DNA from: Candidatus Peregrinibacteria bacterium
GTDB lineage: Bacteria; Patescibacteriota; Gracilibacteria; Peribacterales; Peribacteraceae
Assembly: GCA_016201685.1 (NCBI GenBank)
Contig: JACQCJ010000058.1
Location: 1 to 40,712, forward strand
Direction: 5' to 3'
DNA: 40,712 bases
Shown here: positions 3,487 through 38,218 of the stretch, piece after piece
How the letters are laid out: every line of letters starts with the position of its first letter
Numbering within the stretch: the stretch's first letter is position 1
Position numbers and translations under genes: made by a program
The notes under the pieces: generated by a model
Database searches by the model: none
Told to the model about the DNA's origin: nothing
The model's input: only the letters and a program-made list of their open reading frames with translations

Positions 3487-3506
3487 ATCGCCATTCTATA
3501 CTCTTT

Positions 3507-3614
3507 TGGGCGGGACGACCCGCCTACGCTTGCGAGCTACGGCGAGGTTGCTCGCAGATACCGAATCTTCCGAATGTCTGTGGTGATAATGACTCTGGTC
3601 GGGACGACTGGACT
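3507..3614. repeat. Left copy of a 108-bp direct repeat; contains an orphan copy of the last 19 nt of tRNA-Pro
   Basis: Matches 6861-6968 at a constant offset of 3354 nt, with 2 mismatches by my count (3510, 3553). It ends with TGGTCGGGACGACTGGACT (reverse complement of the tRNA-Pro 3' end) and diverges at 3615. Confidence 0.9.
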
Positions 3615-3845: not shown

Positions 3846-5108
3846 CTACGTAGAGATACCTGTTCTCCTGCCCTGCCAACGCGAGAATCCTTGAAAGATA
3901 AGAAGTGAGATCACGGAGACGGGCAAAGAAACTACCGATGTCGCCGGTGTGAGTGTTCCGGTGACCAGCAGTGGTACAAAACTCAAAGCAGCAAGGACAA
4001 CGCTCAGTGTCACAGCTTGATCCGACAGCTTCCAGAAGAGCGAGCCGAAGGTGGGGGGGAAGAGCGCGAGGCTCAAACTGGCGAGCGAGAGACCCAACGC
4101 AATAATATCTTTGTACAAGATTCCAATGATGACACCGACGACTATGAAGAGTGTGATGAAGAATCGGGTCATCCGGCGCATAGAAGATGCACTGAAGCGA
4201 TGTGTGCGGTGTTGGAGGTCTCGCGTAAAGATCGTGGAAACCACGAACGTGACTGTGTCCGATGAGGATAGACAGACTGCGTAGAGCAGCACCATACCAA
4301 GCTCCTTCAATCCACGTGGGAGGAGCGTAGAAAACCCTGCCACGAGCGCATTGTTTGGAGCGATGTCCGGCAACAATTGTTTTGTGACGAGTCCGATCAC
4401 TGCCAACACAAGAGCAAGGAGAGGCAGAATGAATGTGCCGTACATGAGGCCACGCTTCATCGTCGTAATATCGCGTGCGGCGAACATGCGCTGCCACAAA
4501 TCCGGCTGCACCATGATGCCGAAGACGCCAATCACCAAGAAGCCAATGAGTGTACCAGCATCCATCTTTCCAATGAGTTGCACGTCTGCTGATGGAATAC
4601 TCGTTCTTCCAAAGAGATACGCTGCGACCATCACGGTCATGAATATCATGACAAGGAGCTGAAATACATCCGTGTGTACGACTGCCTTGAACCCCGCAAG
4701 CAGAAGATAGGTGAGGATGATCAGGCCACCGATGGCGACGGAGAGCTGGTAAGGTATAGGGAAAATGGCCGACAGTACTTGCGCACTCACGATGAAGTTC
4801 ACCGTCAGCCAGAAGAAAAACGCGATGATGAGAACTACGGAGTATGCAAGTCCACTGCGACGACCGATAGTGTGCAGGAAGTACTCTGGCATGGTGTATA
4901 CCTTGAGTCCATCTGCCTTCTGTTTGATGCGCGTTGCAAATTGCCGGAGACAGAAAAAACCAAGTCCAAGCCCTATGAAAAGCCAAATCGCCGAGAAACC
5001 AAACTGATAGATATAGGCAATGTAGATGGAAAGCGTGGCTCCATCGAAGAAGCCTGCGCTCATTGTCGCCGCAAGCTGGAGACCCATCACATTGCGGTCC
5101 GCAATCAT
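3846..5108 (-). CDS. Sodium:solute symporter family (SSF) transporter, apparently missing its first TM helix
   Basis: 420-aa polytopic ORF. Upstream in the same frame the SSF-typical LFIGWIASRKETEEGF precedes M1 but is cut by an in-frame TGA at 5163-5165, and no TM1 is encoded in any frame. Family call rests on overall SSF-like TM pattern and motifs. Confidence 0.65.
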   Translation of the reverse strand: MIADRNVMGLQLAATMSAGFFDGATLSIYIAYIYQFGFSAIWLFIGLGLGFFCLRQFATRIKQKADGLKVYTMPEYFLHTIGRRSGLAYSVVLIIAFFFWLTVNFIVSAQVLSAIFPIPYQLSVAIGGLIILTYLLLAGFKAVVHTDVFQLLVMIFMTVMVAAYLFGRTSIPSADVQLIGKMDAGTLIGFLVIGVFGIMVQPDLWQRMFAARDITTMKRGLMYGTFILPLLALVLAVIGLVTKQLLPDIAPNNALVAGFSTLLPRGLKELGMVLLYAVCLSSSDTVTFVVSTIFTRDLQHRTHRFSASSMRRMTRFFITLFIVVGVIIGILYKDIIALGLSLASLSLALFPPTFGSLFWKLSDQAVTLSVVLAALSFVPLLVTGTLTPATSVVSLPVSVISLLIFQGFSRWQGRRTGIST

Positions 5109-5148: not shown

Positions 5149-6840
5149 ATGAACAGTTCCTGTCAGCTTTGCTCCGACTCTTTTGAGATCACGCAGAATG
5201 ATCATATATTCCATGAACGTGTTTCGCCGGTTCTCAACGGAAAAAACTACCTCATTTCTCCTCCAAATCTATGCCCCTCTTGCCGTATGCGGCGGAGAGC
5301 GTCGTTCCGTAACGAACGCAGTCTCTACGTACGGACGTGCAACCTCTGCAAGAAATCAATAGTGTCCATCTTCTCGCCGGACAAGACGTATCCGGTCTAT
5401 TGCATCGACTGCTGGTGGAGCGACCGTTGGGACTCCATGCAGTACGGGCGGGCGTTTGATTTCAATAGCTCTTTCTCTGAGCAATGGGGGAAATTATTCG
5501 ACGCCGTTCCAAAGCTTGGTCTATTCCAGCTTCCTGGTGAAGTGAACAGCGCGTACACCCAGGACAATACGGGAGTGAAAAATTGTTACATGACGTTCGA
5601 TGGGGAAGGCGGCGAAGATTCATACTACGGCGAGACGTTCATCAAGATCAAAGACTGCTGCGACTTCCTGGGGCTGCAACAAACTGAACTCGCCTACGAG
5701 TGCGTGCAGTGCCAAGACTGCTACAGCATCACCTTCTCGCGCTTCTGTAGGAATTGTTCCGACTCCGCATTCCTCCTCGATTGCCAGGCTTGCAAACACT
5801 GCTTGGGATGCGCAAATCTCTCGCAAAAAGAGCTCTGCATATTCAATGTTCAGTACACGAAGGAAGAATATGAAAAGAAAGTACTCTCCTACGAACTTCA
5901 TACTCGCAAAGGGCTGGCGCAACTGCGCTCCGAGGCCGAACGTTTCTTCCTCACGCAACCGAGGAAGGCCTGTAGGAATATGATGAGCGAAAATGTGAGC
6001 GGCGATGATCTCATACAGTGTAAAAACGTCCTGGACTCATTCGACTGCATTGGCCTGAGCGATTCCCGGTACTGCACTCACACGTACGGAGCATCGGACT
6101 GCCAAGATGTGGATGGCTGGGGTAATGGCCTCACGGTTGCGTACGATTCATCCTATGTCGGTGGCGGAGCGCAGAATGTAGCCGCGTGCTTTTACGTGGG
6201 CATGGGGGCAAGCAATGTGTACCACAGCGCTTTCTGCATACAGAACGTTGCTAACATCTTCGGTTCCATCGCCCTGATGCATAAGGAGTACTGCATCCTC
6301 AACAAGCAATATACGAAAGAGGAGTATGAGACGTTGACGCCGAGGATTCTGGAACATCTGCAGAAGTCCGGCGAATTGGGGCAGTTTTTCGGAACCGAAC
6401 TCTCGGCCTACGCGTACAACGAATCCGTGGCGCAGGATTACTTTCCATTAAATGAGAAGCAGGCAAAAGAACTGGGATTTACATGGTATTCGGCGGTGAA
6501 AGAAATTCCTGCCGTAAAGAAAATCATCGATGCTTCCGCTCTTCCCGAGTCCATAGACGATGTACCCGATGATGTGCTCAACTGGGCAATTCGCTGCCGA
6601 GTGACCGAACGTCCTTTCCGCATTCAAAATGCGGAACTGAACTTCTGCCGCAAGATGCACATTCCGATTCCACAGTATCACTTCGATGTGCGTCACGCCG
6701 CACGACTCTCTCTACGAAACCCACGCCAAATCTGGCAGAGGCAATGTCAGAAATGTGAGAGGCAGATTGATACGACCTACGCACCGGAACGCCCAGAGAT
6801 CATCTATTGCGAGGAATGCTACCTGAAAGATATATATTGA
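5149..6840 (+). CDS. Cys-rich zinc-ribbon protein (563 aa) with related N- and C-terminal CxxC...CxxC modules and a duplicated Cys-rich core
   Basis: ATG at 5149 (MNSSCQLCSDSF...). The tracked start 5026 would overlap the divergent transporter. N-terminal module LCPSCRMRRRASFRNERSLYVRTCNLCKKSI..YPVYCIDCW resembles the C-terminal module RHAARLSLRNPRQIWQRQCQKCERQI..IIYCEECY. Internal repeat: C(I/L)xNxQYTKEEYE occurs twice. Confidence 0.75.
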   Translation: MNSSCQLCSDSFEITQNDHIFHERVSPVLNGKNYLISPPNLCPSCRMRRRASFRNERSLYVRTCNLCKKSIVSIFSPDKTYPVYCIDCWWSDRWDSMQYGRAFDFNSSFSEQWGKLFDAVPKLGLFQLPGEVNSAYTQDNTGVKNCYMTFDGEGGEDSYYGETFIKIKDCCDFLGLQQTELAYECVQCQDCYSITFSRFCRNCSDSAFLLDCQACKHCLGCANLSQKELCIFNVQYTKEEYEKKVLSYELHTRKGLAQLRSEAERFFLTQPRKACRNMMSENVSGDDLIQCKNVLDSFDCIGLSDSRYCTHTYGASDCQDVDGWGNGLTVAYDSSYVGGGAQNVAACFYVGMGASNVYHSAFCIQNVANIFGSIALMHKEYCILNKQYTKEEYETLTPRILEHLQKSGELGQFFGTELSAYAYNESVAQDYFPLNEKQAKELGFTWYSAVKEIPAVKKIIDASALPESIDDVPDDVLNWAIRCRVTERPFRIQNAELNFCRKMHIPIPQYHFDVRHAARLSLRNPRQIWQRQCQKCERQIDTTYAPERPEIIYCEECYLKDIY

Positions 6841-6860
6841 TTTTGGCTTCCATTAGCCAT

Positions 6861-6968
6861 TGGTCGGGACGACCCGCCTACGCTTGCGAGCTACGGCGAG
6901 GTTGCTAGCAGATACCGAATCTTCCGAATGTCTGTGGTGATAATGACTCTGGTCGGGACGACTGGACT
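6861..6968. repeat. Right copy of the 108-bp direct repeat; overlaps the 3' end of the intact tRNA-Pro
   Basis: See 3507-3614. Positions 6950-6968 are the tRNA-Pro 3' end. The 12-mer GGTCGGGACGAC occurs twice inside the repeat (6862-6873 and 6951-6962). Confidence 0.9.
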
Positions 6969-7026
6969 CGAACCAGCGACCTCTTGCACCCCATGCAAGC
7001 GTTCTAGCCAACTGAACTACGTCCCG
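6950..7026 (-). tRNA. tRNA-Pro (anticodon GGG), CCA encoded
   Basis: The reverse complement folds as a cloverleaf: CGGGACG-TA-GTTC-AGTTGGCTA-GAAC-G-CTTGC-ATGGGGT-GCAAG-AGGTC-GCTGG-TTCGAGT-CCAGT-CGTCCCG-A-CCA. Anticodon loop is AT-GGG-GT. Confidence 0.9.
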
Positions 7027-7102: not shown

Positions 7103-8380
7103 TCAGAACGGCGACTCATACACCGCACTCTCCCCCAATTCCTCCTCGATGCGCAGGAGCCGGTTGTATTTGCACAGGCGGTCGGTGCGCGAAAGGGAGC
7201 CGGTCTTGATCTGTCCCGTCTGGAGCCCCACCGCCAAGTCGGCGATGAAGGTGTCTTCGGTCTCGCCGCTGCGGTGACTCACGACCGCTTTCCATCCAGA
7301 CTTTTGGGTTGTCTGAATGGCATCCACGGTTTCGCTCACCGTACCGATCTGGTTGAGTTTGATGAGGACGGCATTGGCGGCCTTCTTCGCGATGCCCTGC
7401 TCGATCCGCGCGACGTTCGTGACGAAGAGATCATCGCCCACAAGCTGGAGCCGGGAACCGAGTTTCCGTTGCATCAACGCGAAGCCTTCCCAGTCATCTT
7501 CGCTGTGGCTGTCTTCGACGGACACGATAGGATAGCGCTTCGCGAGTGCGTGGTAATTCTCGACGAGCGCGGCGGCATCCATTCCTTTTCCATCGACGGT
7601 GTAGAGGCCGTTTGCGCAGAATTCCGTGGCGGCGGCATCGAGCGCGATCGTCACCTTCCCTTCGTACCCGGCCAGCGCGATCGCTTCGACGAGGATGCTG
7701 CACGCGTGATCGGCGTCCGCCACGTGCGGGGCGAACCCTCCCTCATCGCCCACCGCGATCACGTACTGGAAGTTCGTGAGGATGTCCTTGAGGGCGTAGA
7801 ACACTTCGGCCCCGGCTCGAAGCGCTTCATGGAACGACGAGAGACCCGTCGGAACGATCATGAATTCCTGGAAGCTCAACCCCGAATCGGCATGCACGCC
7901 GCCGTTGAGGACGTTCATCAGCGGCACGGGCAGCGAGACAGAATCCAAACGAGAGACACCGAACTGGTCCGCGAGCGAAGTCCACAGCGACCGGCGCTCG
8001 CTCGCCGCCCGCGCGCGGCACACGGCCATCGAGACGCCGAGGATCGCATTGGCACCGAGGCTCGCTTTATTCGCCGTCCCATCGAGGTCGACGAGCAGGC
8101 GATCGATTGCGCGGTGATCGGCGCTGTCTCTCCCCGTGAGTGCCTTCGTGATCGGCCCCTCGACGTTCGCAACGGCCTTCAGCACGGACTTCCCCCGGAA
8201 CTTCTTCGGATCGCCGTCGCGCAGTTCGAGCGCTTCGTGGCTCCCCGTCGAAGCCCCCGATGGAACCGCCGCCCGCCCGAAGCTTCCATCGCTGAGCAGA
8301 CAATCCACCTCCACCGTCGGCGTGCCGCGGGAATCGAGGATTTGACGTGCATGGATGATGGAAATGCAAACCATACTCAT
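7103..8380 (-). CDS. eno: Enolase (phosphopyruvate hydratase)
   Basis: MSMVCISIIHARQILDSRGTPTVEVD...SGASTGSHEALELRDGD...SHRSGETEDTFIADLAV..GQIKTGSLSRTDRLCKYNRLLRIEEEL. 425 aa from the ATG at 8378-8380. The tracked 815-aa ORF merely runs on upstream with no stop. Confidence 0.95.
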   Translation of the reverse strand: MSMVCISIIHARQILDSRGTPTVEVDCLLSDGSFGRAAVPSGASTGSHEALELRDGDPKKFRGKSVLKAVANVEGPITKALTGRDSADHRAIDRLLVDLDGTANKASLGANAILGVSMAVCRARAASERRSLWTSLADQFGVSRLDSVSLPVPLMNVLNGGVHADSGLSFQEFMIVPTGLSSFHEALRAGAEVFYALKDILTNFQYVIAVGDEGGFAPHVADADHACSILVEAIALAGYEGKVTIALDAAATEFCANGLYTVDGKGMDAAALVENYHALAKRYPIVSVEDSHSEDDWEGFALMQRKLGSRLQLVGDDLFVTNVARIEQGIAKKAANAVLIKLNQIGTVSETVDAIQTTQKSGWKAVVSHRSGETEDTFIADLAVGLQTGQIKTGSLSRTDRLCKYNRLLRIEEELGESAVYESPF

Positions 8381-20846: not shown

Positions 20847-20932
20847 AATTGCGAAGGGCGAAGGGCGAGTTGCGAATGACGAATTGTGAGAGCGGCCATG
20901 TCATCCTGAGCCTGTCGAAGGGTGGCCGCCGA
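20847..20932. repeat. Composite MITE-like element: GCGAA-rich arm plus 43-nt hairpin core (copy A)
   Basis: GAATTGCGAAGGGCGAAGGGCGAGTTGCGAATGACGAATTG followed by TGAGAGCGGCCATGTCATCCTGAGCCTGTCGAAGGGTGGCCGC (20888-20930). The reverse complement of the core matches 35137-35179 at 41/43. Confidence 0.85.
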
Positions 20933-26414: not shown

Positions 26415-26717
26415 ATGTTGAATTCTTTTGAATCGCCCTGTGGAAAACTCCTGCGATGGAAGAGCGAAAGGAAAAGTGCGACGTTCGCAGTATTTTTTAG
26501 ATTTTTATTTTCCTTTGCACTTCGCCATCGATGTCCTCAAATATTCAGATCTCAAGGTCATCTCATACCCAAGAGTTCCGAAACGAGCCTCTACGGGGCT
26601 GTTTTGAGGGAAGTGCCAATTTGAGAAGGATTTTGGCCTCAATCAGCTGATCCTCTTTTGAACAGATTCTGGCAATGTCTTCTTGATATTCAAGATAAGA
26701 TGCATTATGTTGAAACT

Positions 26718-27659
26718 ATGAAACTACAATTCCACTCCCCTCTGGCCAGCGCCATCAACCGCTATTTCTCTTTTTTGAAGTCGGAAGAAAACAAATCGAC
26801 ACTCACCGTCCAAAACTATCGTCAGTCGCTGGATCTTTTTTTGACACAATCCCCTCTTCAGGATGTAAAAGGCTTTTCAAAAGAAGCCGTCCGCGCTTAC
26901 AAGGAGAAATTGCATGAATTCCGCACGAGACAGGGGAAGGAATTATCCATCCGGACAAAAAATCACCATTTGACGGTGTTGCGTGCTTTTCTTCGGTATC
27001 TGATACAAGAAGAAGAATTGGATACCTATCCGCCAGACCGAGTGAAGCGATTCAAAGAAGAGCAGAGGAAAGTCAAAGTGTTGTACATCGATGATCTGAA
27101 AAGGCTGTTGGAAGCGCCCGATCATGAAAGCAAGGATGGAAAGAGAGACCGGGCCATATTGCAACTTTTTTTCTCCACGGGTTTGCGTCTGGCTGAATTG
27201 CGGTCGCTCAATCGCAAAGATCTGAATTTTCAGACACGCGAGATCAGCGTGCGCGGCAAACGAAACAAACTCCGGGTCGTGTTTCTCTCGGATGCCGCCG
27301 TTGACGCATTACAAACGTATCTGAATGTTCGCCTTGATCATCTTCATCCGCTTTTCATTCATTATAACGATAAGGCTGCGCAGGAGATGCCCCCGGGGGA
27401 GAATTTTCGCCTGACCAGTAATGCCATTTACCGCATTGTGAAGAAATACGCCCGAATGGCGGGGATCGTTTCCGATCCTTCTCCTCATACTCTGCGCCAT
27501 TCCTTCGCGACTAATCTGCTCCAAAACGGCGCCGACCTTCGTTCCGTTCAAGAAATGCTCGGTCATAAAGATCTCTCGACAACGCAGATCTATACGCATG
27601 TCACCGATCCTCAGTTGAAAGAGGCCCACAGGAAGTTTCATGGCCTTCGTAAGGAATAA
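26718..27659 (+). CDS. Tyrosine site-specific recombinase, XerC/XerD-like
   Basis: N-terminal SAM-like domain (TVQNYRQSLDLFL, NHHLTVLRAFLRYL). Catalytic core: RDRAILQLFFSTGLRLAELRSL...ISVRGKRNKLRVVFLS...PHTLRHSFATNLLQNGADLRSVQEMLGHKDLSTTQIYTHV (R..HxxR..Y). Start taken at MKLQFHS (26718). Confidence 0.88.
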   Translation: MKLQFHSPLASAINRYFSFLKSEENKSTLTVQNYRQSLDLFLTQSPLQDVKGFSKEAVRAYKEKLHEFRTRQGKELSIRTKNHHLTVLRAFLRYLIQEEELDTYPPDRVKRFKEEQRKVKVLYIDDLKRLLEAPDHESKDGKRDRAILQLFFSTGLRLAELRSLNRKDLNFQTREISVRGKRNKLRVVFLSDAAVDALQTYLNVRLDHLHPLFIHYNDKAAQEMPPGENFRLTSNAIYRIVKKYARMAGIVSDPSPHTLRHSFATNLLQNGADLRSVQEMLGHKDLSTTQIYTHVTDPQLKEAHRKFHGLRKE

Positions 27660-27675
27660 TGCGCATTCTCACACT

Positions 27676-28034
27676 ATGGAAAAGGCAAGAAAAGGTATGG
27701 TTGGCATCTATCAGATTTGGCGAATGGCACTCATATCAACAGAGCATTGCAGGAATCTTGGAAGAAGCATGGTCCGGTCTCTTTTCAATTTTCGATTCTG
27801 GAGATCATCGGTGATACAGATGCTCTTCCGGAACGTGAGATCCATTGGCTTGAAAAGACAGGAGCACTCACTCTTGGCTTCAATACGAAAACCGATCAAT
27901 ACAAGGATCGAACATTGATCAGTGTTCATAGAATGACAAAGAATCAGAAAACTCATGGAATTTTTCAAAGCGGGAGGCGGGAAAGGAAGTTCATAAAAAA
28001 TACCACGGACGAAGCGAGAAACGGGTCACCCTGA
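27676..28034 (+). pseudogene. Decayed GIY-YIG (homing-endonuclease-type) nuclease gene
   Basis: The GIY motif is in one frame (MEKARKGMVGIYQIW, from 27676). The later part of the domain is in another frame (27717-: ANGTHINRALQESWKKHGPVSFQFSILEIIGDTDALPEREIHWLEKTGALTLGFN). The YIG..R segment between them is absent. Confidence 0.5.
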
Positions 28035-28075
28035 GCCCGCCAGCCCTAGCCGTTCGGACGGGTCGAACGGGTGAC
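28024..28075. repeat. REP-like inverted-repeat element GGGTCACCCTGAGC...GTCGAACGGGTGAC
   Basis: GGGTCACCCTGAGCCCGCCAGCCCTAGCCGTTCGGACGGGTCGAACGGGTGAC, with terminal inverted repeat GGGTCACCC / GGGTGAC. It sits between two relic copies of the xer 3' end. Confidence 0.65.
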
Positions 28076-28139
28076 GAATCCCAGTTGAAAGAGGCGCATA
28101 GAAAATACCACGGTAGGAGCGAGTAGAGGGTCACCTCGA

Positions 28140-35135: not shown

Positions 35136-35234
35136 CGCGGCCACCCTTCGACAAGCTCAGGGTGACATGGCCGCTCTCAGGTTCTTACAATTTTGAATTC
35201 TGATTCGCAATTCGCCACTTGCAATTCGCAATTC
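35136..35234. repeat. Composite MITE-like element (copy C, inverted relative to copy A)
   Basis: GCGGCCACCCTTCGACAAGCTCAGGGTGACATGGCCGCTCTCA (35137-35179) followed by ...GATTCGCAATTCGCCACTTGCAATTCGCAATTC. The core matches the reverse complement of 20888-20930 at 41/43. Confidence 0.85.
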
Positions 35235-35246
35235 ATCCCTCAATCA

Positions 35247-36569
35247 ATGTCTCTCTTCTCTCCCATCCACCACACGTTCGCCCCTCTTGCAGACGCACGG
35301 CTGCGCCGCTGCGCCCGCGCACTCTCGTACCTGCCATGGCGCTACAAGCGCGGACCGTACAGTGAAAAACTCCGAAGGGCGCTCGAGGAGAAATTCGGGG
35401 GAAGAGCCTTCCTCTTCTCCACCGGCCGCGAGGCGCTCTTCGCGTTTCTTCAATCGATTCCCTCAAAACCCGGCGACGAAGTGATCATCCAGAGTTACAC
35501 CTGCGTTGTCGTCCCAAATGCCATTCATGCCGCCGGACTCAAGACGGTCTACTGCGACATCGAACGCGACACGCTGAGTCTGGATTGCGAAGAGATCGAA
35601 GTGCTCATCACGCCGAAGACGTGTGCGATCATTTGCCAACACACCTTCGGCATTCCCGCGGACACCAAGCGCCTGCGGGAAATCTGTGACCGTCACGGGA
35701 TTCTGCTCATCGAAGACTGCGCGCACGTGATCCCGGATGAAACCGGACCACGCGACATCGGAACAGAGGGCGATGCGCTCCTTCTCAGTTTCGGCCGAGA
35801 CAAAGCCATCTCCGGCATCACCGGCGGGGCCATCATCAGCCGCGTTGCCTCGGCGAATCCCACGCTCGAGCGGATGGCCAAGCACGCGCACGATCTCTCC
35901 TTCTTCACGATTCTGCGGCTGCTCGAATACCCGAACATCTACGGCTGGGCGAAGCTCTTCTACGGCCTTGGGATGGGCAAATTCTCGCTCTTCCTGCACT
36001 CAAAGATCGGAGCGCTTCGACCCATTCTAACAAGCGACGAAAAACATGGCCGCATGCGCACGGTCCTCCACCGCATCCCCGACGTCTGCGCCGCCCTCGC
36101 CCTCGAACAACTGGAGCGTCTACGGGAACTGAATGATCATCGGAGGATGTTGACGAAGTTTTTCCTTGAGGAAGGAAAAAAGAGAAGATGGCCGATGCTA
36201 CATTGCTTCTGTCCTGGTGAGCGCGTCGAACCATGGACAGAAGCAAAATTGTCGACCCTTCGACGGGCTCAGGGTGACAATTTGATAGTTGTTCAGGAAT
36301 CTCCCCTCCAAAAATTCCCCCTCTTCGTCCGCGGCGCCGAAAAAATCCGCCGCGCGCTCAAGAAAAAAAATATTCATCTCCACGACGGCTGGACGGGCTG
36401 TGTCGTGTGCCCCGCCTCCGTGCACCTCCCCGATACCGGCTATGAAATGGGCAACGATCTGGCGGCCGAAGCCGTCTGCGAAGAAATCCTCAGCTTGCCG
36501 ACGCATCCGACGATGAGTCTGAAGCAGGCAAAAGAGCTTGTGGAAGCCCTGGATCATCTGCTTCAATGA
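35247..36569 (+). CDS. DegT/DnrJ/EryC1/StrS-family PLP-dependent sugar aminotransferase, carrying an in-frame repeat-derived insertion
   Basis: STGREALFAFLQSI...GDEVIIQSYTCVVVPNAI..AGLKTVYCDI......IICQHTFGIPAD...I.....GILLIEDCAH.....LLLSFGRDKAISG (Schiff-base Lys). Residues around ..EAKLSTLRRAQGDNL.. are encoded by the REP core at 36251-36278. Confidence 0.85.
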   Translation: MSLFSPIHHTFAPLADARLRRCARALSYLPWRYKRGPYSEKLRRALEEKFGGRAFLFSTGREALFAFLQSIPSKPGDEVIIQSYTCVVVPNAIHAAGLKTVYCDIERDTLSLDCEEIEVLITPKTCAIICQHTFGIPADTKRLREICDRHGILLIEDCAHVIPDETGPRDIGTEGDALLLSFGRDKAISGITGGAIISRVASANPTLERMAKHAHDLSFFTILRLLEYPNIYGWAKLFYGLGMGKFSLFLHSKIGALRPILTSDEKHGRMRTVLHRIPDVCAALALEQLERLRELNDHRRMLTKFFLEEGKKRRWPMLHCFCPGERVEPWTEAKLSTLRRAQGDNLIVVQESPLQKFPLFVRGAEKIRRALKKKNIHLHDGWTGCVVCPASVHLPDTGYEMGNDLAAEAVCEEILSLPTHPTMSLKQAKELVEALDHLLQ

Positions 36570-36575
36570 CGCGCT

Positions 36576-37166
36576 ATGGCTGCGCCGTTCTTCACGCTCA
36601 AAGGGAAGACGCTCGTCCTCATCGATTGGGCCAATATTTTCCATGCACAGCGTAAGAACGGATGGGCGGTCGATACTCGAAAGCTCCTTGCTCTCTTCAA
36701 AGAGCATCCGGAAATCCATGACATCGTCCTTTTCCATGGAACCGATCAGCACGAAAAATCGCAGTCCTTCCTCCGGGAACAAGCGGCCATCGGCTATCGC
36801 ATCGTGACGAAGGCCGTGAAGAAAGTGCCGGTGACGGTGGACCATGAGGGCAATCCGCTCCCAGAGGCAATCCTGCGGCGCAAGTGCGACTTCGATGTCG
36901 AAATCGCCAAGGAAATTCTCCTGAATCTCGACCGGTATCAGGGTTTCATTCTCATGAGTGGTGATGGAGATTACGCCCCCATTCTCGACGTGCTTCGCGA
37001 GCGCCGGACGCAAACAATCCTCGTGTTCCCGAAGGGCGGCTTGGGACGAGAATACACGGAAAACCCGCTCAGGAAGCATGCGATTTTTCTCTGCTCGCTT
37101 GAACGTCTGCGTCCCTTCATTGAGTTCAAAAATATCCCGGCGGGACCGAAATCCCGTCGGGCGTGA
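36576..37166 (+). CDS. NYN-domain (LabA/DUF88-like, PIN-fold) putative nuclease
   Basis: LVLIDWANIFHAQ...VLFHGTD....SFLREQAAIGYRIVTKAVKK......RKCDFDVEIAKEILLNLDRYQGFILMSGDGDYAPILDVLRERRTQTILVF. ATG lies 6 nt after the DegT stop. Confidence 0.8.
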   Translation: MAAPFFTLKGKTLVLIDWANIFHAQRKNGWAVDTRKLLALFKEHPEIHDIVLFHGTDQHEKSQSFLREQAAIGYRIVTKAVKKVPVTVDHEGNPLPEAILRRKCDFDVEIAKEILLNLDRYQGFILMSGDGDYAPILDVLRERRTQTILVFPKGGLGREYTENPLRKHAIFLCSLERLRPFIEFKNIPAGPKSRRA

Positions 37167-37223
37167 TTGATTTCAGTATAGCCGCGGATAGGAGCGAGTC
37201 AAATCTTTTTGAGAGCCCGCTGC

Positions 37224-37412
37224 GGCTGGACGGGCTGTGTCGTCTGCCCTGCCTCGGTGCATCTCCCCGATACCAGCTACGAACTGGGCAACGATCCGGC
37301 TGCCGAAGCCCTCTGCGAAGAAATCCTCAGCTTGCCGACGCATCCGACGATGACGACGAAACAAGCGAAGGAATTGGTGGACGCTTTGGATCTTGTCCTT
37401 CAGAAAAAATGA
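37224..37412 (+). pseudogene. Orphan, diverged duplicate of the DegT aminotransferase 3' end (last ~60 codons)
   Basis: GWTGCVVCPASVHLPDTSYELGNDPAAEALCEEILSLPTHPTMTTKQAKELVDALDLVLQKK* compared with the DegT C-terminus GWTGCVVCPASVHLPDTGYEMGNDLAAEAVCEEILSLPTHPTMSLKQAKELVEALDHLLQ* (36387-36569). No upstream DegT body. Confidence 0.8.
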
Positions 37413-37442
37413 TGATTTTTGGCATACGTATGCTTCTTTTCA

Positions 37443-37853
37443 TCATGGAAGAAGCTTCAATGCTTTCTTGTTCGCGAGTCGGTACACGGTGAAATCCCGG
37501 CGATCCAGGGTGAACACTATATCGATCTTCTCACGCTCGGCGAGGTAGACAAGGCAGGCGTCGGCCAGTTGCACTCCTTGATCCGCATACTGCGTAAAGA
37601 ACGTCGAGAGCCACGACATGGCGGATGCATCGAGCGGAAGAAGCTGGAACAGTCCAACCTCAAACCCGTCGAGCAACCGCTGCACGGCCGCCAGATCCGT
37701 ACGCAGCAACCATGCCGCCTCCGTGATGACCGGCCAACAGGTGAGGAGTGGAGGCGAAAGCTTGCGGAGTTGCTCGACACATGCGGTGTGGTGAGCATCC
37801 CGCTGCGAGAGAATGGCAACCAACGGCCCCGTATCGACAAGGACCCGGCTCAT
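37443..37853 (-). CDS. vapC: PIN-domain ribonuclease toxin VapC
   Basis: MSRVLVDTGPLVAILSQRD.H........L.....PLLTCWPVITEAAWLL.....VQLADACLVYLAEREKIDIVFTLDRRDF has the conserved D..E..D..D positions. Start overlaps the antitoxin stop (37850-37853). Confidence 0.85.
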   Translation of the reverse strand: MSRVLVDTGPLVAILSQRDAHHTACVEQLRKLSPPLLTCWPVITEAAWLLRTDLAAVQRLLDGFEVGLFQLLPLDASAMSWLSTFFTQYADQGVQLADACLVYLAEREKIDIVFTLDRRDFTVYRLANKKALKLLP

Positions 37854-38095
37854 GATTGGCCGAAGCCATCGAGATGCTTCTGGTTCGTGCTGAGATCGCT
37901 CGGGCCGCTTTTCATGGCCTCGATGAGCCCGGCTTTCCGCGCCAAAGCGTAGCAGCTACGGGTGGTGGTGCGAGCGGTCCGATGAGGGGTTGGCGAGACA
38001 GTCACCTGTACCCGCTCATGCTCGCGCAGCTTGAGCGGCTGCAATGGACGGAGTACGCCCTGCTCGTAGACGGCTTGGAGAGTCTTCGGATTCAT
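37850..38095 (-). CDS. Antitoxin, DUF104/AF2212-like N-terminal domain (VapB-type partner)
   Basis: MNPKTLQAVYEQGVLRPLQPLKLREHERVQVTV is the family's AxYEnGvLkPLxxLxLxE pattern. 81 aa. Confidence 0.65.
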   Translation of the reverse strand: MNPKTLQAVYEQGVLRPLQPLKLREHERVQVTVSPTPHRTARTTTRSCYALARKAGLIEAMKSGPSDLSTNQKHLDGFGQS

Positions 38096-38101
38096 GCCTC
38101 T

Positions 38102-38107
38102 ATTCTA
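38102..38107 (-). promoter_or_regulatory. -10 box for the vapBC operon (leaderless geometry)
   Basis: The minus strand reads TAGAAT, then 6 nt (AGAGGC), then ATG (38095). Confidence 0.35.
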
Positions 38108-38218
38108 CAACACAATACTCTGGCATCCCACTCATTCCCGAGCAAAAAGCTCATATCTCAGGCCTCCTCGTACCACAGCACAGATCTCTCTTTCCGCTTC
38201 CAAATTATGCTAATTTTG

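Follow-up and report, generated by a model that had tools for sequence, protein, structure and literature searches.

Restriction-modification systems have been reported to undergo insertion with long target duplication (Nobusato et al., 2000, Gene 259:99; Furuta, Abe and Kobayashi, 2010, PMC2853133). The units concerned are small, selfish and nuclease-bearing, they are devoid of transposase and integrase, and they are enclosed by direct repeats of 46-423 bp that vary in length, are single in the genome with the empty site and frequently include a stop or start codon, which lets the target gene survive. A comparable arrangement is found in fungal mitochondria, for example in Endoconidiophora, where free-standing homing endonuclease genes reside beside C-terminal duplications of atp6 and cob, the order being gene, endonuclease reading frame(s) and partial C-terminal copy of the gene (PMC6279837). 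Integrative islands at the 3' ends of tRNA and protein genes likewise leave their target intact and are flanked by its duplicated 3' end. Long target duplications of variable length are furthermore generated by the insertion sequences IS1634 and IS1549, for which they amount to tens to hundreds of bp. Those of IS1630 from Mycoplasma measure 19-26 bp (cited in PMC2853133).

The locus analysed here resembles the first of these systems in all the features listed, the repeats being 35 to about 360 bp long across the loci of its module. Its cargo, however, consists of genes for a LabA-like NYN protein and a small antisense RNA in place of R and M genes, and it therefore constitutes a variant of insertion with long target duplication outside the restriction-modification cases. 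It also differs in its CPR hosts and in the ends of the insert, the right one being nearly constant and the left one ragged. In our judgement, with a probability of about 70%, this selfish module of NYN and small RNA was relocated into the end of a DegT gene by insertion with long target duplication. Unlike the insertion sequences mentioned above, which possess DDE transposases and terminal inverted repeats and occur in several copies per genome, the module has none of these: no terminal inverted repeats were found at the ends of the insert, and a scan for close-family NYN genes yielded one locus per genome assembly.

The window, that is the whole analysed stretch of 40,712 nucleotides, is one metagenome-assembled contig. 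On its plus strand it carries an intact gene for a DegT/DnrJ/EryC1-family aminotransferase (35247-36569; Pfam PF01041, E = 3.2e-43), syntenic orthologues of which (55-77% identity) occur in Peregrinibacteria and Peribacteria in the order Abhydrolase - Mur ligase - DegT. The last 60 codons of this gene (copy A, 36386-36565) recur downstream on the same strand (copy B, 37223-37402) as an ungapped direct repeat of 180 nt with 85% identity, as established by local alignment and a repeat finder; alignment of flank against flank scores 112.5, while shuffles reach a maximum of 14. A preliminary description had given strand, identity and an offset of 837 nt correctly but had extended the homology through the stop codons. 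Homology ends at 36565/37402, three codons short of the stop codon of copy B itself, and the DegT stop codon (TGA, 36567-36569) therefore belongs to the inserted DNA. The pairwise alignment that had been called for fixes the junctions at 36565/36566 and 37222/37223; the insert (36566-37222) thus measures 657 nt, is abutted by a repeat copy at both edges and has the G+C content of its flanks, and the 837 bp formerly assigned to the cassette are the start-to-start spacing of the repeat copies. The stranded 3' fragment (37223-37412, plus strand) comprises copy B, which sets in without transition at the right-hand edge of the insert, and the original last three DegT codons with their stop. As noted before, it is still in frame, and its translation, GWTGCVVCPASVHLPDTSYELGNDPAAEALCEEILSLPTHPTMTTKQAKELVDALDLVLQKK followed by the stop, matches the last 37 positions of Pfam DegT_DnrJ_EryC1. 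Directly downstream, the vapBC pair already reported is present, VapC and VapB being encoded on the minus strand.

The insert is a 5'-truncated version of the NYN and small-RNA module. Homology with the closest relative's module begins exactly at 36566 (L010, position 4990) and extends to 37180 in BLAST; the conserved trailer motif continues past this point to the -35 element of a promoter at around 37202, or to around 37210 by eye. Furuta et al. (2010) recognised insertions of this kind by direct repeats of more than 30 bp abutting an insert of less than 20 kb, by the absence of any other mobility gene from the insert and by a repeat sequence that is single at the empty site of a related genome. 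At DegT, 180-nt repeats abut 657 nt, and the Pfam search of the insert, which contains NYN and the small RNA, revealed no recombinase, transposase or other mobility gene. Empty DegT sites, a search for which had been proposed, are present in the closest relative (L006) and in a more distant one (L008): both possess a single DegT 3' end, no NYN gene at this place and other genes directly after it. In L006, NYN resides about 20.7 kb from DegT on the same contig, next to a reverse transcriptase gene, and the DegT insertion site is seen in the window only, the other NYN orthologues being located elsewhere.

These findings also bear on the proposal that copy B is what is left of a decayed tandem DegT paralogue with NYN ancestrally in between, or that the arrangement is an assembly artefact. 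Although the preserved reading frame of copy B would agree with it, the tandem paralogues flanking NYN that had been named as speaking against an insertion were not seen in L006 and L008, where a single DegT is followed by other genes; relatives have NYN elsewhere, and copy B starts abruptly at the edge of the module. Copies with 85% identity cannot come from k-mer collapse, and the same architecture exists in independent assemblies with other targets, so that a decayed paralogue is excluded and an artefact is hardly credible.

The module was rightly taken for a discrete element that has moved, as is evident from the empty sites and from its distribution. In L010, L013, L020 and L027 it resides at a common site adjoining an RVT_1 gene, NYN orthologues occupy at least six different contexts, and orthologous cassettes (75-86% amino acid identity), a search for which had been suggested, were encountered behind other genes, several of them with long target duplications of their own. 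Long direct repeats surround 17 of 76 NYN loci, compared with 3 of 198 control intervals (odds ratio 19, p = 4e-8), and this enrichment holds even for NYN proteins with 35-46% identity. In L018 (138 nt, 96%), L016 (100 nt, 92%) and L045 (97 nt, 91%) the repeats directly adjoin the module; in L037, L033, L065, L088 and others they enclose it. They are 35 to about 360 nt in length and often span the stop codon of the neighbouring gene, the targets, which are left intact, being unrelated gene 3' ends including those of genes for an AI-2E transporter, HsdM and a DUF3800 protein. At 5 of 12 close-family loci no flanking repeat was detected. The repeats in L028, L088 and L015 are less clean, with neighbouring paralogues or 5' ends involved, and the L028 repeat was rejected as a clean target duplication on account of the neighbouring genes. 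A second empty site was sought for L018, where the neighbouring 363-aa protein has no homologues; DegT provides the one empty-site comparison in all. The right end of the insert lies 0-35 nt past the -35 box (7 loci), whereas the left end precedes the NYN start codon by anything between 10 and about 1000 nt. An 80-nt leader that accompanies the module at its usual site is missing from the copy in the window. It was dropped as a candidate regulatory 5' region, reading instead as a stranded C-terminal fragment (WSSKLDAIRTAMLSGMALA, followed by a stop codon) of a gene family with extra copies nearby, and is probably an older target duplication that was carried along.

The analogy with tRNA-targeting islands drawn in the preliminary description fails. 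In contrast to such islands the module has no integrase, its targets share no common core, targets and repeat lengths differ between loci, and the repeat copies are not identical. Site-specific integration between attL/attR-type repeats could in principle be catalysed in trans by a tyrosine recombinase, as it is for integrase-less cis-mobilisable islands, and a gene for an Xer-type enzyme is indeed present in the window (26658-27659). The earlier statement that integrases and transposases are absent accordingly holds for the surroundings of the cassette, which no recombinase adjoins, and not for the window as a whole. The direct repeats around the insert would be in line with such a reaction, yet their 85% identity leaves no identical core, no shared core was found at the junctions, the targets are unrelated in sequence with repeats of widely different lengths, and no recombinase lies in or beside any of the modules. 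We therefore see only a very slight chance for integration in trans.

More weight has to be given to the possibility that the module arrived at DegT together with a replacement 3' end. A segment consisting of T, module and T', or a looped-out circle of module plus one T, would have been imported from a closely related strain via Campbell-type or homology-facilitated recombination at DegT, in which case copy A would be partly foreign and copy B the resident 3' end. Copy B has in fact kept the ancestral residues P, L and T (in DP, YEL and TMT) that are lost from copy A, and its homology to L006 persists past the end of copy A (CAGAAAAAA versus CAGAAAGAA), as would be expected if B were native and A derived. 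At 15% divergence, dN/dS between the copies is 0.18, and the copy B lineage has undergone five synonymous and five non-synonymous changes (n = 10, p ~0.07 against neutrality, a weak test). These values fit poorly with a scenario in which the duplication arose purely in place and then decayed neutrally; they suggest that much of the divergence dates from a time when both copies were part of working genes and provide a weak codon-level hint that one of them may have been imported. In addition, direct repeats on both sides allow any structure to be excised as a loop and to re-enter in this manner. On the other hand, A and B are sister sequences: they resemble each other (85%) more than the lone DegT 3' end of L006, with which their identity is 80-82% (80% for copy A), and relative to L006 they have 6-11 derived sites in common. 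No donor with a DegT-NYN junction was found among about 76 NYN loci, and import would merely spread an existing insertion, leaving new target sites unexplained. The geometry is as much that of a 180-bp target duplication as that of an element supplying a new 3' end, as had been claimed, and import appears unlikely, albeit worth keeping in mind. A further possibility, namely that the two copies represent template and variable repeat of a diversity-generating retroelement (DGR), was considered because NYN usually adjoins a DGR reverse transcriptase; it was rejected since the 27 differences are not adenine-specific, with adenine at 5 of 27 sites in copy A and likewise at 5 of 27 in copy B.

The same footprint is seen at two further insertions in the window, which contain a GIY-YIG remnant and a transporter, respectively. 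The recurrence of the architecture at tRNA-Pro and xer, reported before, is borne out in terms of repeats. At tRNA-Pro, a repeat of 109 nt (98% identity) brackets 3245 nt. Behind xer, a stranded copy of the xer C-terminus follows a truncated GIY-YIG endonuclease-like reading frame, which has no Pfam match even at E <= 10 and matches NCBIfam TIGR01453 with 2.5e-8, below the family cut-off. This arrangement of xer, GIY-YIG remnant and xer fragment has the form of the fungal homing genes.

The NYN gene (36576-37166, plus strand) starts 6 nt past the DegT stop and encodes 196 amino acids, both as described before, and the protein matches Pfam PF01936 with 66.9 bits (cut-off 24.2; E = 3.5e-18). An AlphaFold2 model (pLDDT 87) predicts a PIN-like alpha/beta fold resembling that of a solved LabA-like protein, the best Foldseek match in the PDB being 2qip (LabA-like VPA0982; E = 2.9e-8, TM 0.62/0.74). 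Across 23 NYN orthologues four acidic residues (D105, D107, D130, D132) do not vary, and a fifth, D17, is nearly invariant, being conserved in at least 90%; these five may be the catalytic, metal-binding residues. To our knowledge, no biochemical role has been established for LabA-like NYN proteins, a family of thousands. The only Pfam family matched is PF01936 and the NCBIfam search was blank, that is no recognised homing endonuclease family (LAGLIDADG, GIY-YIG, HNH, His-Cys, PD-(D/E)xK, EDxHD) was detected in the protein. Exact-sequence look-up of the NYN and DegT proteins of the window returned no record, and a search for phage carriage in IMG/VR gave one distant match and none of the close NYN family. 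In the 2017 classification of the PIN superfamily, 2qip represents NYN.COG1432, COG1432 is listed as of unknown function, and no member of the LabA-like group had been studied as a nuclease (PMC5499597).

As the sole protein of the unit, with its acidic residues conserved, NYN might be a homing or transposing DNA endonuclease that cuts the target and renders the module an autonomous mobile element. The strong enrichment of long repeats even around distant NYN genes would agree with this, as would the identical footprint of the GIY-YIG remnant behind xer and the fungal homing endonuclease genes adjoining atp6 and cob duplications (PMC6279837). Unlike those fungal genes, however, NYN belongs to no recognised homing family, has no known DNA cleavage activity and has close orthologues at different targets. 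NYN domains are known or predicted RNases, the module is present as a single copy per genome, inspection by eye of four loci uncovered no common motif at the target junctions, the left end of the insert varies, and the tRNA-Pro island displays the same footprint with no nuclease inside. An endonuclease of this kind must therefore be considered doubtful.

NYN had been regarded as the only gene between the DegT copies, and a small RNA gene on the minus strand had been overlooked. The predicted RNA of about 41 nt (37127-37167, minus strand) consists of 5'-AUCACG, followed by a hairpin rich in G+C, whose loop is of the UUCG type, and by a U-run. It runs antisense to the final ~40 nt of the NYN coding sequence, the two genes being convergent. 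A promoter scan located a strong, near-consensus sigma-70-type promoter (37175-37202, minus strand; TTGACT - 16 nt - TATACT, 10/12 matches), and a minus-strand terminator is predicted at 37152-37134. The hexamers and their spacing, but not the spacer sequence, are conserved down to homologues with 35% amino acid identity (TTGACA - 16/17 nt - TGCTATAAT), and the element is present 3' of NYN at 78 of 107 loci, always in the same orientation. Among the minus-strand hairpins, 36 different stems occur, capped by GNRA or UUCG loops; compensatory changes occur at 7 of 9 stem pairs, and covariation amounts to 0.647 as compared to 0.253 in shuffles (0/500). Judged by these signatures the small RNA gene is real and conserved. 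A search of Rfam with the hairpin region yielded no match.

In Bacillus, the type I toxin-antitoxin pairs txpA/RatA and bsrG/SR4 possess convergent antisense RNAs that overlap at the 3' end. The module shows the same convergent layout of protein gene and small antisense RNA gene with 3' overlap as well as a location in toxin-antitoxin and defence islands, and, as is characteristic for type I systems, the antisense RNA is predicted to have its own promoter and terminator and to overlap the putative toxin gene. It deviates from such pairs in that the putative toxin is a 196-aa protein with a nuclease fold rather than a small membrane peptide, and in that the predicted RNA comprises little beyond a 6-nt leader and a terminator hairpin. 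Taken together, small RNA and NYN make the unit look like an addiction-type module, and we infer that it persists as a pair of toxin and antisense-RNA antitoxin.

The constant right end (7 loci), the variable left end and the variable duplication lengths would also suit retroposition, in which an NYN transcript ending at the antisense promoter is copied into DNA by a reverse transcriptase, such as that of the neighbouring DGR, and then inserted by target priming; the RVT_1 gene adjoining the usual site in L010, L013, L020 and L027 could be cited in its favour. Nevertheless, there is no A-tail, the antisense promoter is carried intact, many NYN loci lack a nearby reverse transcriptase and no bacterial retroposition of such kind is known, which makes this route very improbable.

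The insertion into DegT and the duplication of its 3' end are established by the data, and so are the empty sites, the movement of the module between loci, the surplus of long repeats flanking NYN modules and the conserved small RNA gene. Returning to relocation by insertion with long target duplication, the module would have left its usual site, beside the DGR-type reverse transcriptase in the closest relatives, and landed within the last codons of DegT, whereby 180 bp of the target were duplicated. DegT is kept whole by copy A and a stop codon from the insert, with the original 3' end stranded as copy B. NYN has lost its own leader and is now probably transcribed along with DegT. A double-strand or widely staggered break, followed by repair copying the target onto both sides, may have been the underlying event. 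That NYN itself made the break is not very likely, and host processes, alongside which the two other insertions with the same footprint in the window may be cited, are the more likely source; NYN as the catalyst of movement is conjecture. The more far-reaching notion that LabA-like NYN and the ~41-nt antisense RNA constitute an autonomous selfish element of a new class, NYN making the break that results in insertion at gene 3' ends with long target duplications and the small RNA restraining the nuclease, is rather improbable.

For restriction-modification systems, insertion with long target duplication has been on record since 2000 and still awaits a mechanism, and a unit of 650 nt with one protein offers a much simpler system for working it out. 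Long target duplications flank the module nineteen-fold more often than control DNA. In the streamlined genomes of the CPR, selfish cassettes seem to owe their survival to settling at the 3' ends of genes and restoring these ends; one 40-kb window contains three such cases. The LabA-like NYN protein emerges as the protein component of a two-gene module that is portable and whose other half, a conserved RNA, is absent from Rfam, and the combination of nuclease toxin and antisense RNA provides a concrete, testable hypothesis for these proteins. If NYN does make the break and the small RNA restrains it, this would explain mechanistically how insertion with long target duplication comes about and assign a first function to the large COG1432 family.

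Within the complete 40,712-bp contig, which belongs to a Candidatus Peregrinibacteria (CPR) metagenome-assembled genome, local alignment and the repeat finder both recover a single direct repeat at the DegT locus (36386-36565 versus 37223-37402). It is ungapped, 180 nt long, 85% identical and has a period of 837, in line with the preliminary description of a duplicated DegT 3' end on the same strand at an offset of 837 nt and about 85% identity. The flank-versus-flank score is 112.5, compared to at most 14 for shuffled sequence. Copy A makes up the final 60 codons of the gene for a DegT-family aminotransferase (35247-36569; Pfam E 3.2e-43); copy B is in frame and matches the C-terminus of that Pfam model. 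A gene for a 196-aa NYN protein (36576-37166; PF01936, 66.9 bits) lies between the copies, and the vapBC pair reported to follow the cassette is present downstream of copy B on the minus strand. Similarity of the copies ends at 36565/37402; past this point copy B alone runs on (CAGAAAAAATGA) like the closest relative (CAGAAAGAAG...), whereas copy A proceeds with ATGACGCGCTATG. The DegT stop codon therefore belongs to the inserted DNA. The cassette had been given as 837 bp; this value holds for the repeat period, but the inserted DNA amounts to 657 nt (36566-37222). Its G+C content equals that of its flanks, terminal inverted repeats are absent from its ends, and neither a recombinase nor a transposase is encoded in it. 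The window contains three copies of a short repeat element, CCCTTCGACnnGCTCAGGGTGAC (36256-36278, 35144-35166 and 20900-20922; chance expectation none). One copy is in frame within DegT, inside a 28-aa insertion that most DegT orthologues do not have and in place of which the closest relative carries a different, longer one.

DegT belongs to the syntenic core, with the gene order Abhydrolase - Mur ligase - DegT - ... - FemAB - ... - ArgRS. Empty-site alleles were found in two loci of relatives; all sequences compared are from metagenome assemblies. In L008 (DegT 62% identical in amino acids) FemAB directly follows DegT, and in the closest relative, L006 (77% amino acid identity for DegT, about 80-87% in nucleotides across the region), a nucleotidyltransferase-type toxin-antitoxin gene comes next. 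Both possess a single DegT 3' end to which copies A and B each align, and two ancestral tandem DegT paralogues are thereby ruled out. The matched empty site applies to the window's own insertion only. The toxin-antitoxin cargo 3' of DegT differs between the window (VapBC, 37413-38212) and L006 (nucleotidyltransferase-type, 5609-6185) while the flanks are homologous; by comparison of these sequences, the site downstream of DegT is a putative hot spot for cassette exchange.

Copies A and B are 85% identical to each other, and 80% and 82%, respectively, to L006. Since they have 6-11 derived sites in common, they are sister sequences. Private changes number 13 in A and 10 in B, and the conserved residues DP, YEL and TMT are kept in B and lost in A. 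A dN/dS of 0.18 between the copies and five synonymous plus five non-synonymous private changes in B, where neutrality expects about 76% non-synonymous (p ~0.07), weakly suggest, over the 180 nt compared, that both copies were still parts of functional genes when some of the divergence accumulated. In that case, recombination would have brought in one of them from a close relative. This hint would be explained if the structure had been imported, looping out through its repeats and re-entering a naive homologous site, a course of events that we consider possible though unlikely.

DNA similarity among NYN loci begins shortly before the ATG and continues for about 45 nt past the stop codon, and this tail is better conserved than the NYN coding sequence (92% versus 76%). 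It is laid out as AAAAATATCCCGG-stem-loop-stem-CCGGGCGTGAT, about 8 nt, TATAGCA, 13-17 free nt and GTCAAG. Read on the minus strand, it constitutes a near-consensus promoter (TTGACA - 16/17 nt - TGCTATAAT), followed after about 7 nt by AUCACG, a G+C-rich hairpin and a U-run. In the window, a scan tool predicts the promoter at 37202-37175 (10/12 matches) and a terminator at 37152-37134, both on the minus strand. Of 107 loci, 78 show the pattern, invariably immediately 3' of NYN and with a single orientation, and it persists at protein identities as low as 35%. The 60 distinct sequences comprise 36 different stems, with minus-strand loops of the GNRA or UUCG type, and seven of the nine pairs called by RNAalifold show compensatory changes. 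Pairing reaches 94% versus 75% in shuffles, and covariation 0.647 versus 0.253 (0/500 shuffles; slid controls at most 0.185). Furthermore, the excess of G-U pairs over A-C mismatches in the minus-strand reading (about 23:5) points to a hairpin belonging to a minus-strand RNA. Nothing in Rfam matches the hairpin region. The predicted small RNA (minus strand, ~37167 to 37127) would be antisense to the final ~40 nt of the NYN coding sequence, and the NYN module is, on this evidence, composed of two genes, NYN and a predicted small-RNA gene. The latter is bracketed by a 10-nt inverted repeat (37126-37135 / 37203-37212; TCAAAAATAT / ATCTTTTTGA), whose CAAAAA...TTTTTG pair recurs in NYN orthologues and which may represent just the tail of the terminator plus an A/T-rich promoter element upstream.

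In answer to the suggestion of looking for the same NYN cassette behind other genes, orthologues (75-86% amino acid identity) were located in several unrelated contexts: between the genes for a peptidoglycan-binding protein and carB, beside pilin genes together with a zeta toxin, and beside a reverse transcriptase. When 1.2-1.5 kb upstream of each NYN gene were aligned to 2.5-3 kb downstream, long direct repeats emerged at six of the 12 loci in the close family and at 11 of 64 others. The same score was reached in three of 198 control intervals from the same NYN loci, the window and DegT loci (odds ratio 19, p = 4e-8). Long flanking repeats thus appear to be a property of NYN modules. They abut the module on both sides in L018 (138 nt, 96%; 3' end and terminator of a gene for 132 aa on the minus strand), L016 (100 nt, 92%; the final 33 codons and the stop codon of an AI-2E transporter gene) and L045 (97 nt, 91%; an AT-rich organism with a 37% identical NYN); elsewhere the repeats reach over the 3' end of hsdM (L065), of a DUF3800 gene (L037) and of further genes, and less clean cases are L028, L088 and L015. 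One control interval of L045 away from NYN holds a 100-nt direct repeat (5986-6087 / 7392-7493, score 84.5); type I restriction-modification genes adjoin this locus.

The right copy begins 0-35 nt past the -35 box in the window, L018, L016, L045, L033, L065 and L091. On the other hand, the left insert end lies 10 nt (window), 24 nt (L016), 42 nt (L018) or, in the usual form, 80 nt upstream of the ATG, and up to about 1 kb where another gene is included. In the usual form, the 80-nt leader is itself the stranded C-terminus (WSSKLDAIRTAMLSGMALA*) of a different gene family, of which additional copies lie close by (L020 3409 and 8050, L028 3761, L012 6179). It probably represents an earlier target duplication that travelled with the module. 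Retroposition of the module would fit a constant right end, a ragged left end, variable duplications and a usual site adjoining a DGR-type reverse transcriptase, but nothing else supports it and we regard it as very improbable. In the closest relatives, module and reverse transcriptase gene stand tail-to-tail (L010 5781-6833, L013 1265-2314, L020 5789-6622, L027), and L003 has a bAvd gene in the vicinity. Ragged insert ends, the lack of a recombinase or transposase, a long duplication of the target, variable in length, that runs across a stop codon and spares the gene, and the empty site in a relative are best described as 'insertion with long target duplication' (probability about 0.7). The name was introduced by Kobayashi's group for restriction-modification systems with 46-423-bp repeats, mostly in competent species; the mechanism is not established and possibly begins at a double-strand break (PMC2853133). 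The NYN insert resembles these insertions in its footprint.

The like architecture proposed for two further sites of the window is present at both. A 109-nt direct repeat of 98% identity (3506-3614 / 6860-6968), which includes the final 19 nt of the tRNA-Pro(ggg) gene on the minus strand (6950-7026), brackets 3245 nt with an SSS-family sodium/solute symporter gene (3846-5108, minus strand), and an integrase was not found in this stretch. The xer-type recombinase gene (26658-27659; Phage_integrase family) is directly followed by a 105-aa ORF resembling NCBIfam TIGR01453 'group I intron endonuclease' (GIY-YIG; E 2.5e-8, below cut-off), which covers profile positions 38-130 of 215, is truncated at its N-terminus and has no Pfam match. 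Behind it, a copy of the xer C-terminus is stranded (GDESQLKEAHRKYHGRSE*; 28066-28122; QLKEAHRKYHG versus QLKEAHRKFHG); ORF and fragment together occupy 27717-28122. This case shares its architecture with DegT/NYN but features a recognised homing-endonuclease family, and resembles the free-standing homing endonuclease genes adjoining C-terminal gene duplications in fungal mitochondria (PMC6279837). That NYN itself makes the break gains from this parallel and from the strong enrichment of long repeats at NYN modules; nevertheless, wherever their activity is known NYN domains are RNases, and the tRNA-Pro island, which is among the three positive control intervals, shows this footprint while carrying a transporter and no nuclease, leaving the role doubtful.

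Judging from its model (AlphaFold2, pLDDT 87; best PDB match 2qip, E 2.9e-8), the NYN protein is a good LabA-like NYN, and of its conserved acidic residues D17, D105, D107, D130 and D132 four are invariant and D17 is nearly so. Nuclease activity of the NYN.COG1432 group has not yet been studied (PMC5499597). The L006 genome carries an orthologue (85% amino acid identity) about 20.7 kb along the same contig (L010), from which the window NYN diverges to an extent comparable to housekeeping genes (78% nucleotide identity), and a genome scan revealed one close-family locus per assembly. Together with the flank-like G+C content, these findings picture the NYN module as a resident that would seldom relocate, neither a proliferating insertion sequence nor a recent foreign import. 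The combination of a nuclease-fold protein with a convergent, strongly promoted antisense RNA, in the company of VapBC, zeta toxin, Panacea, restriction-modification and DGR genes, suggests that the two may form an addiction-type pair.
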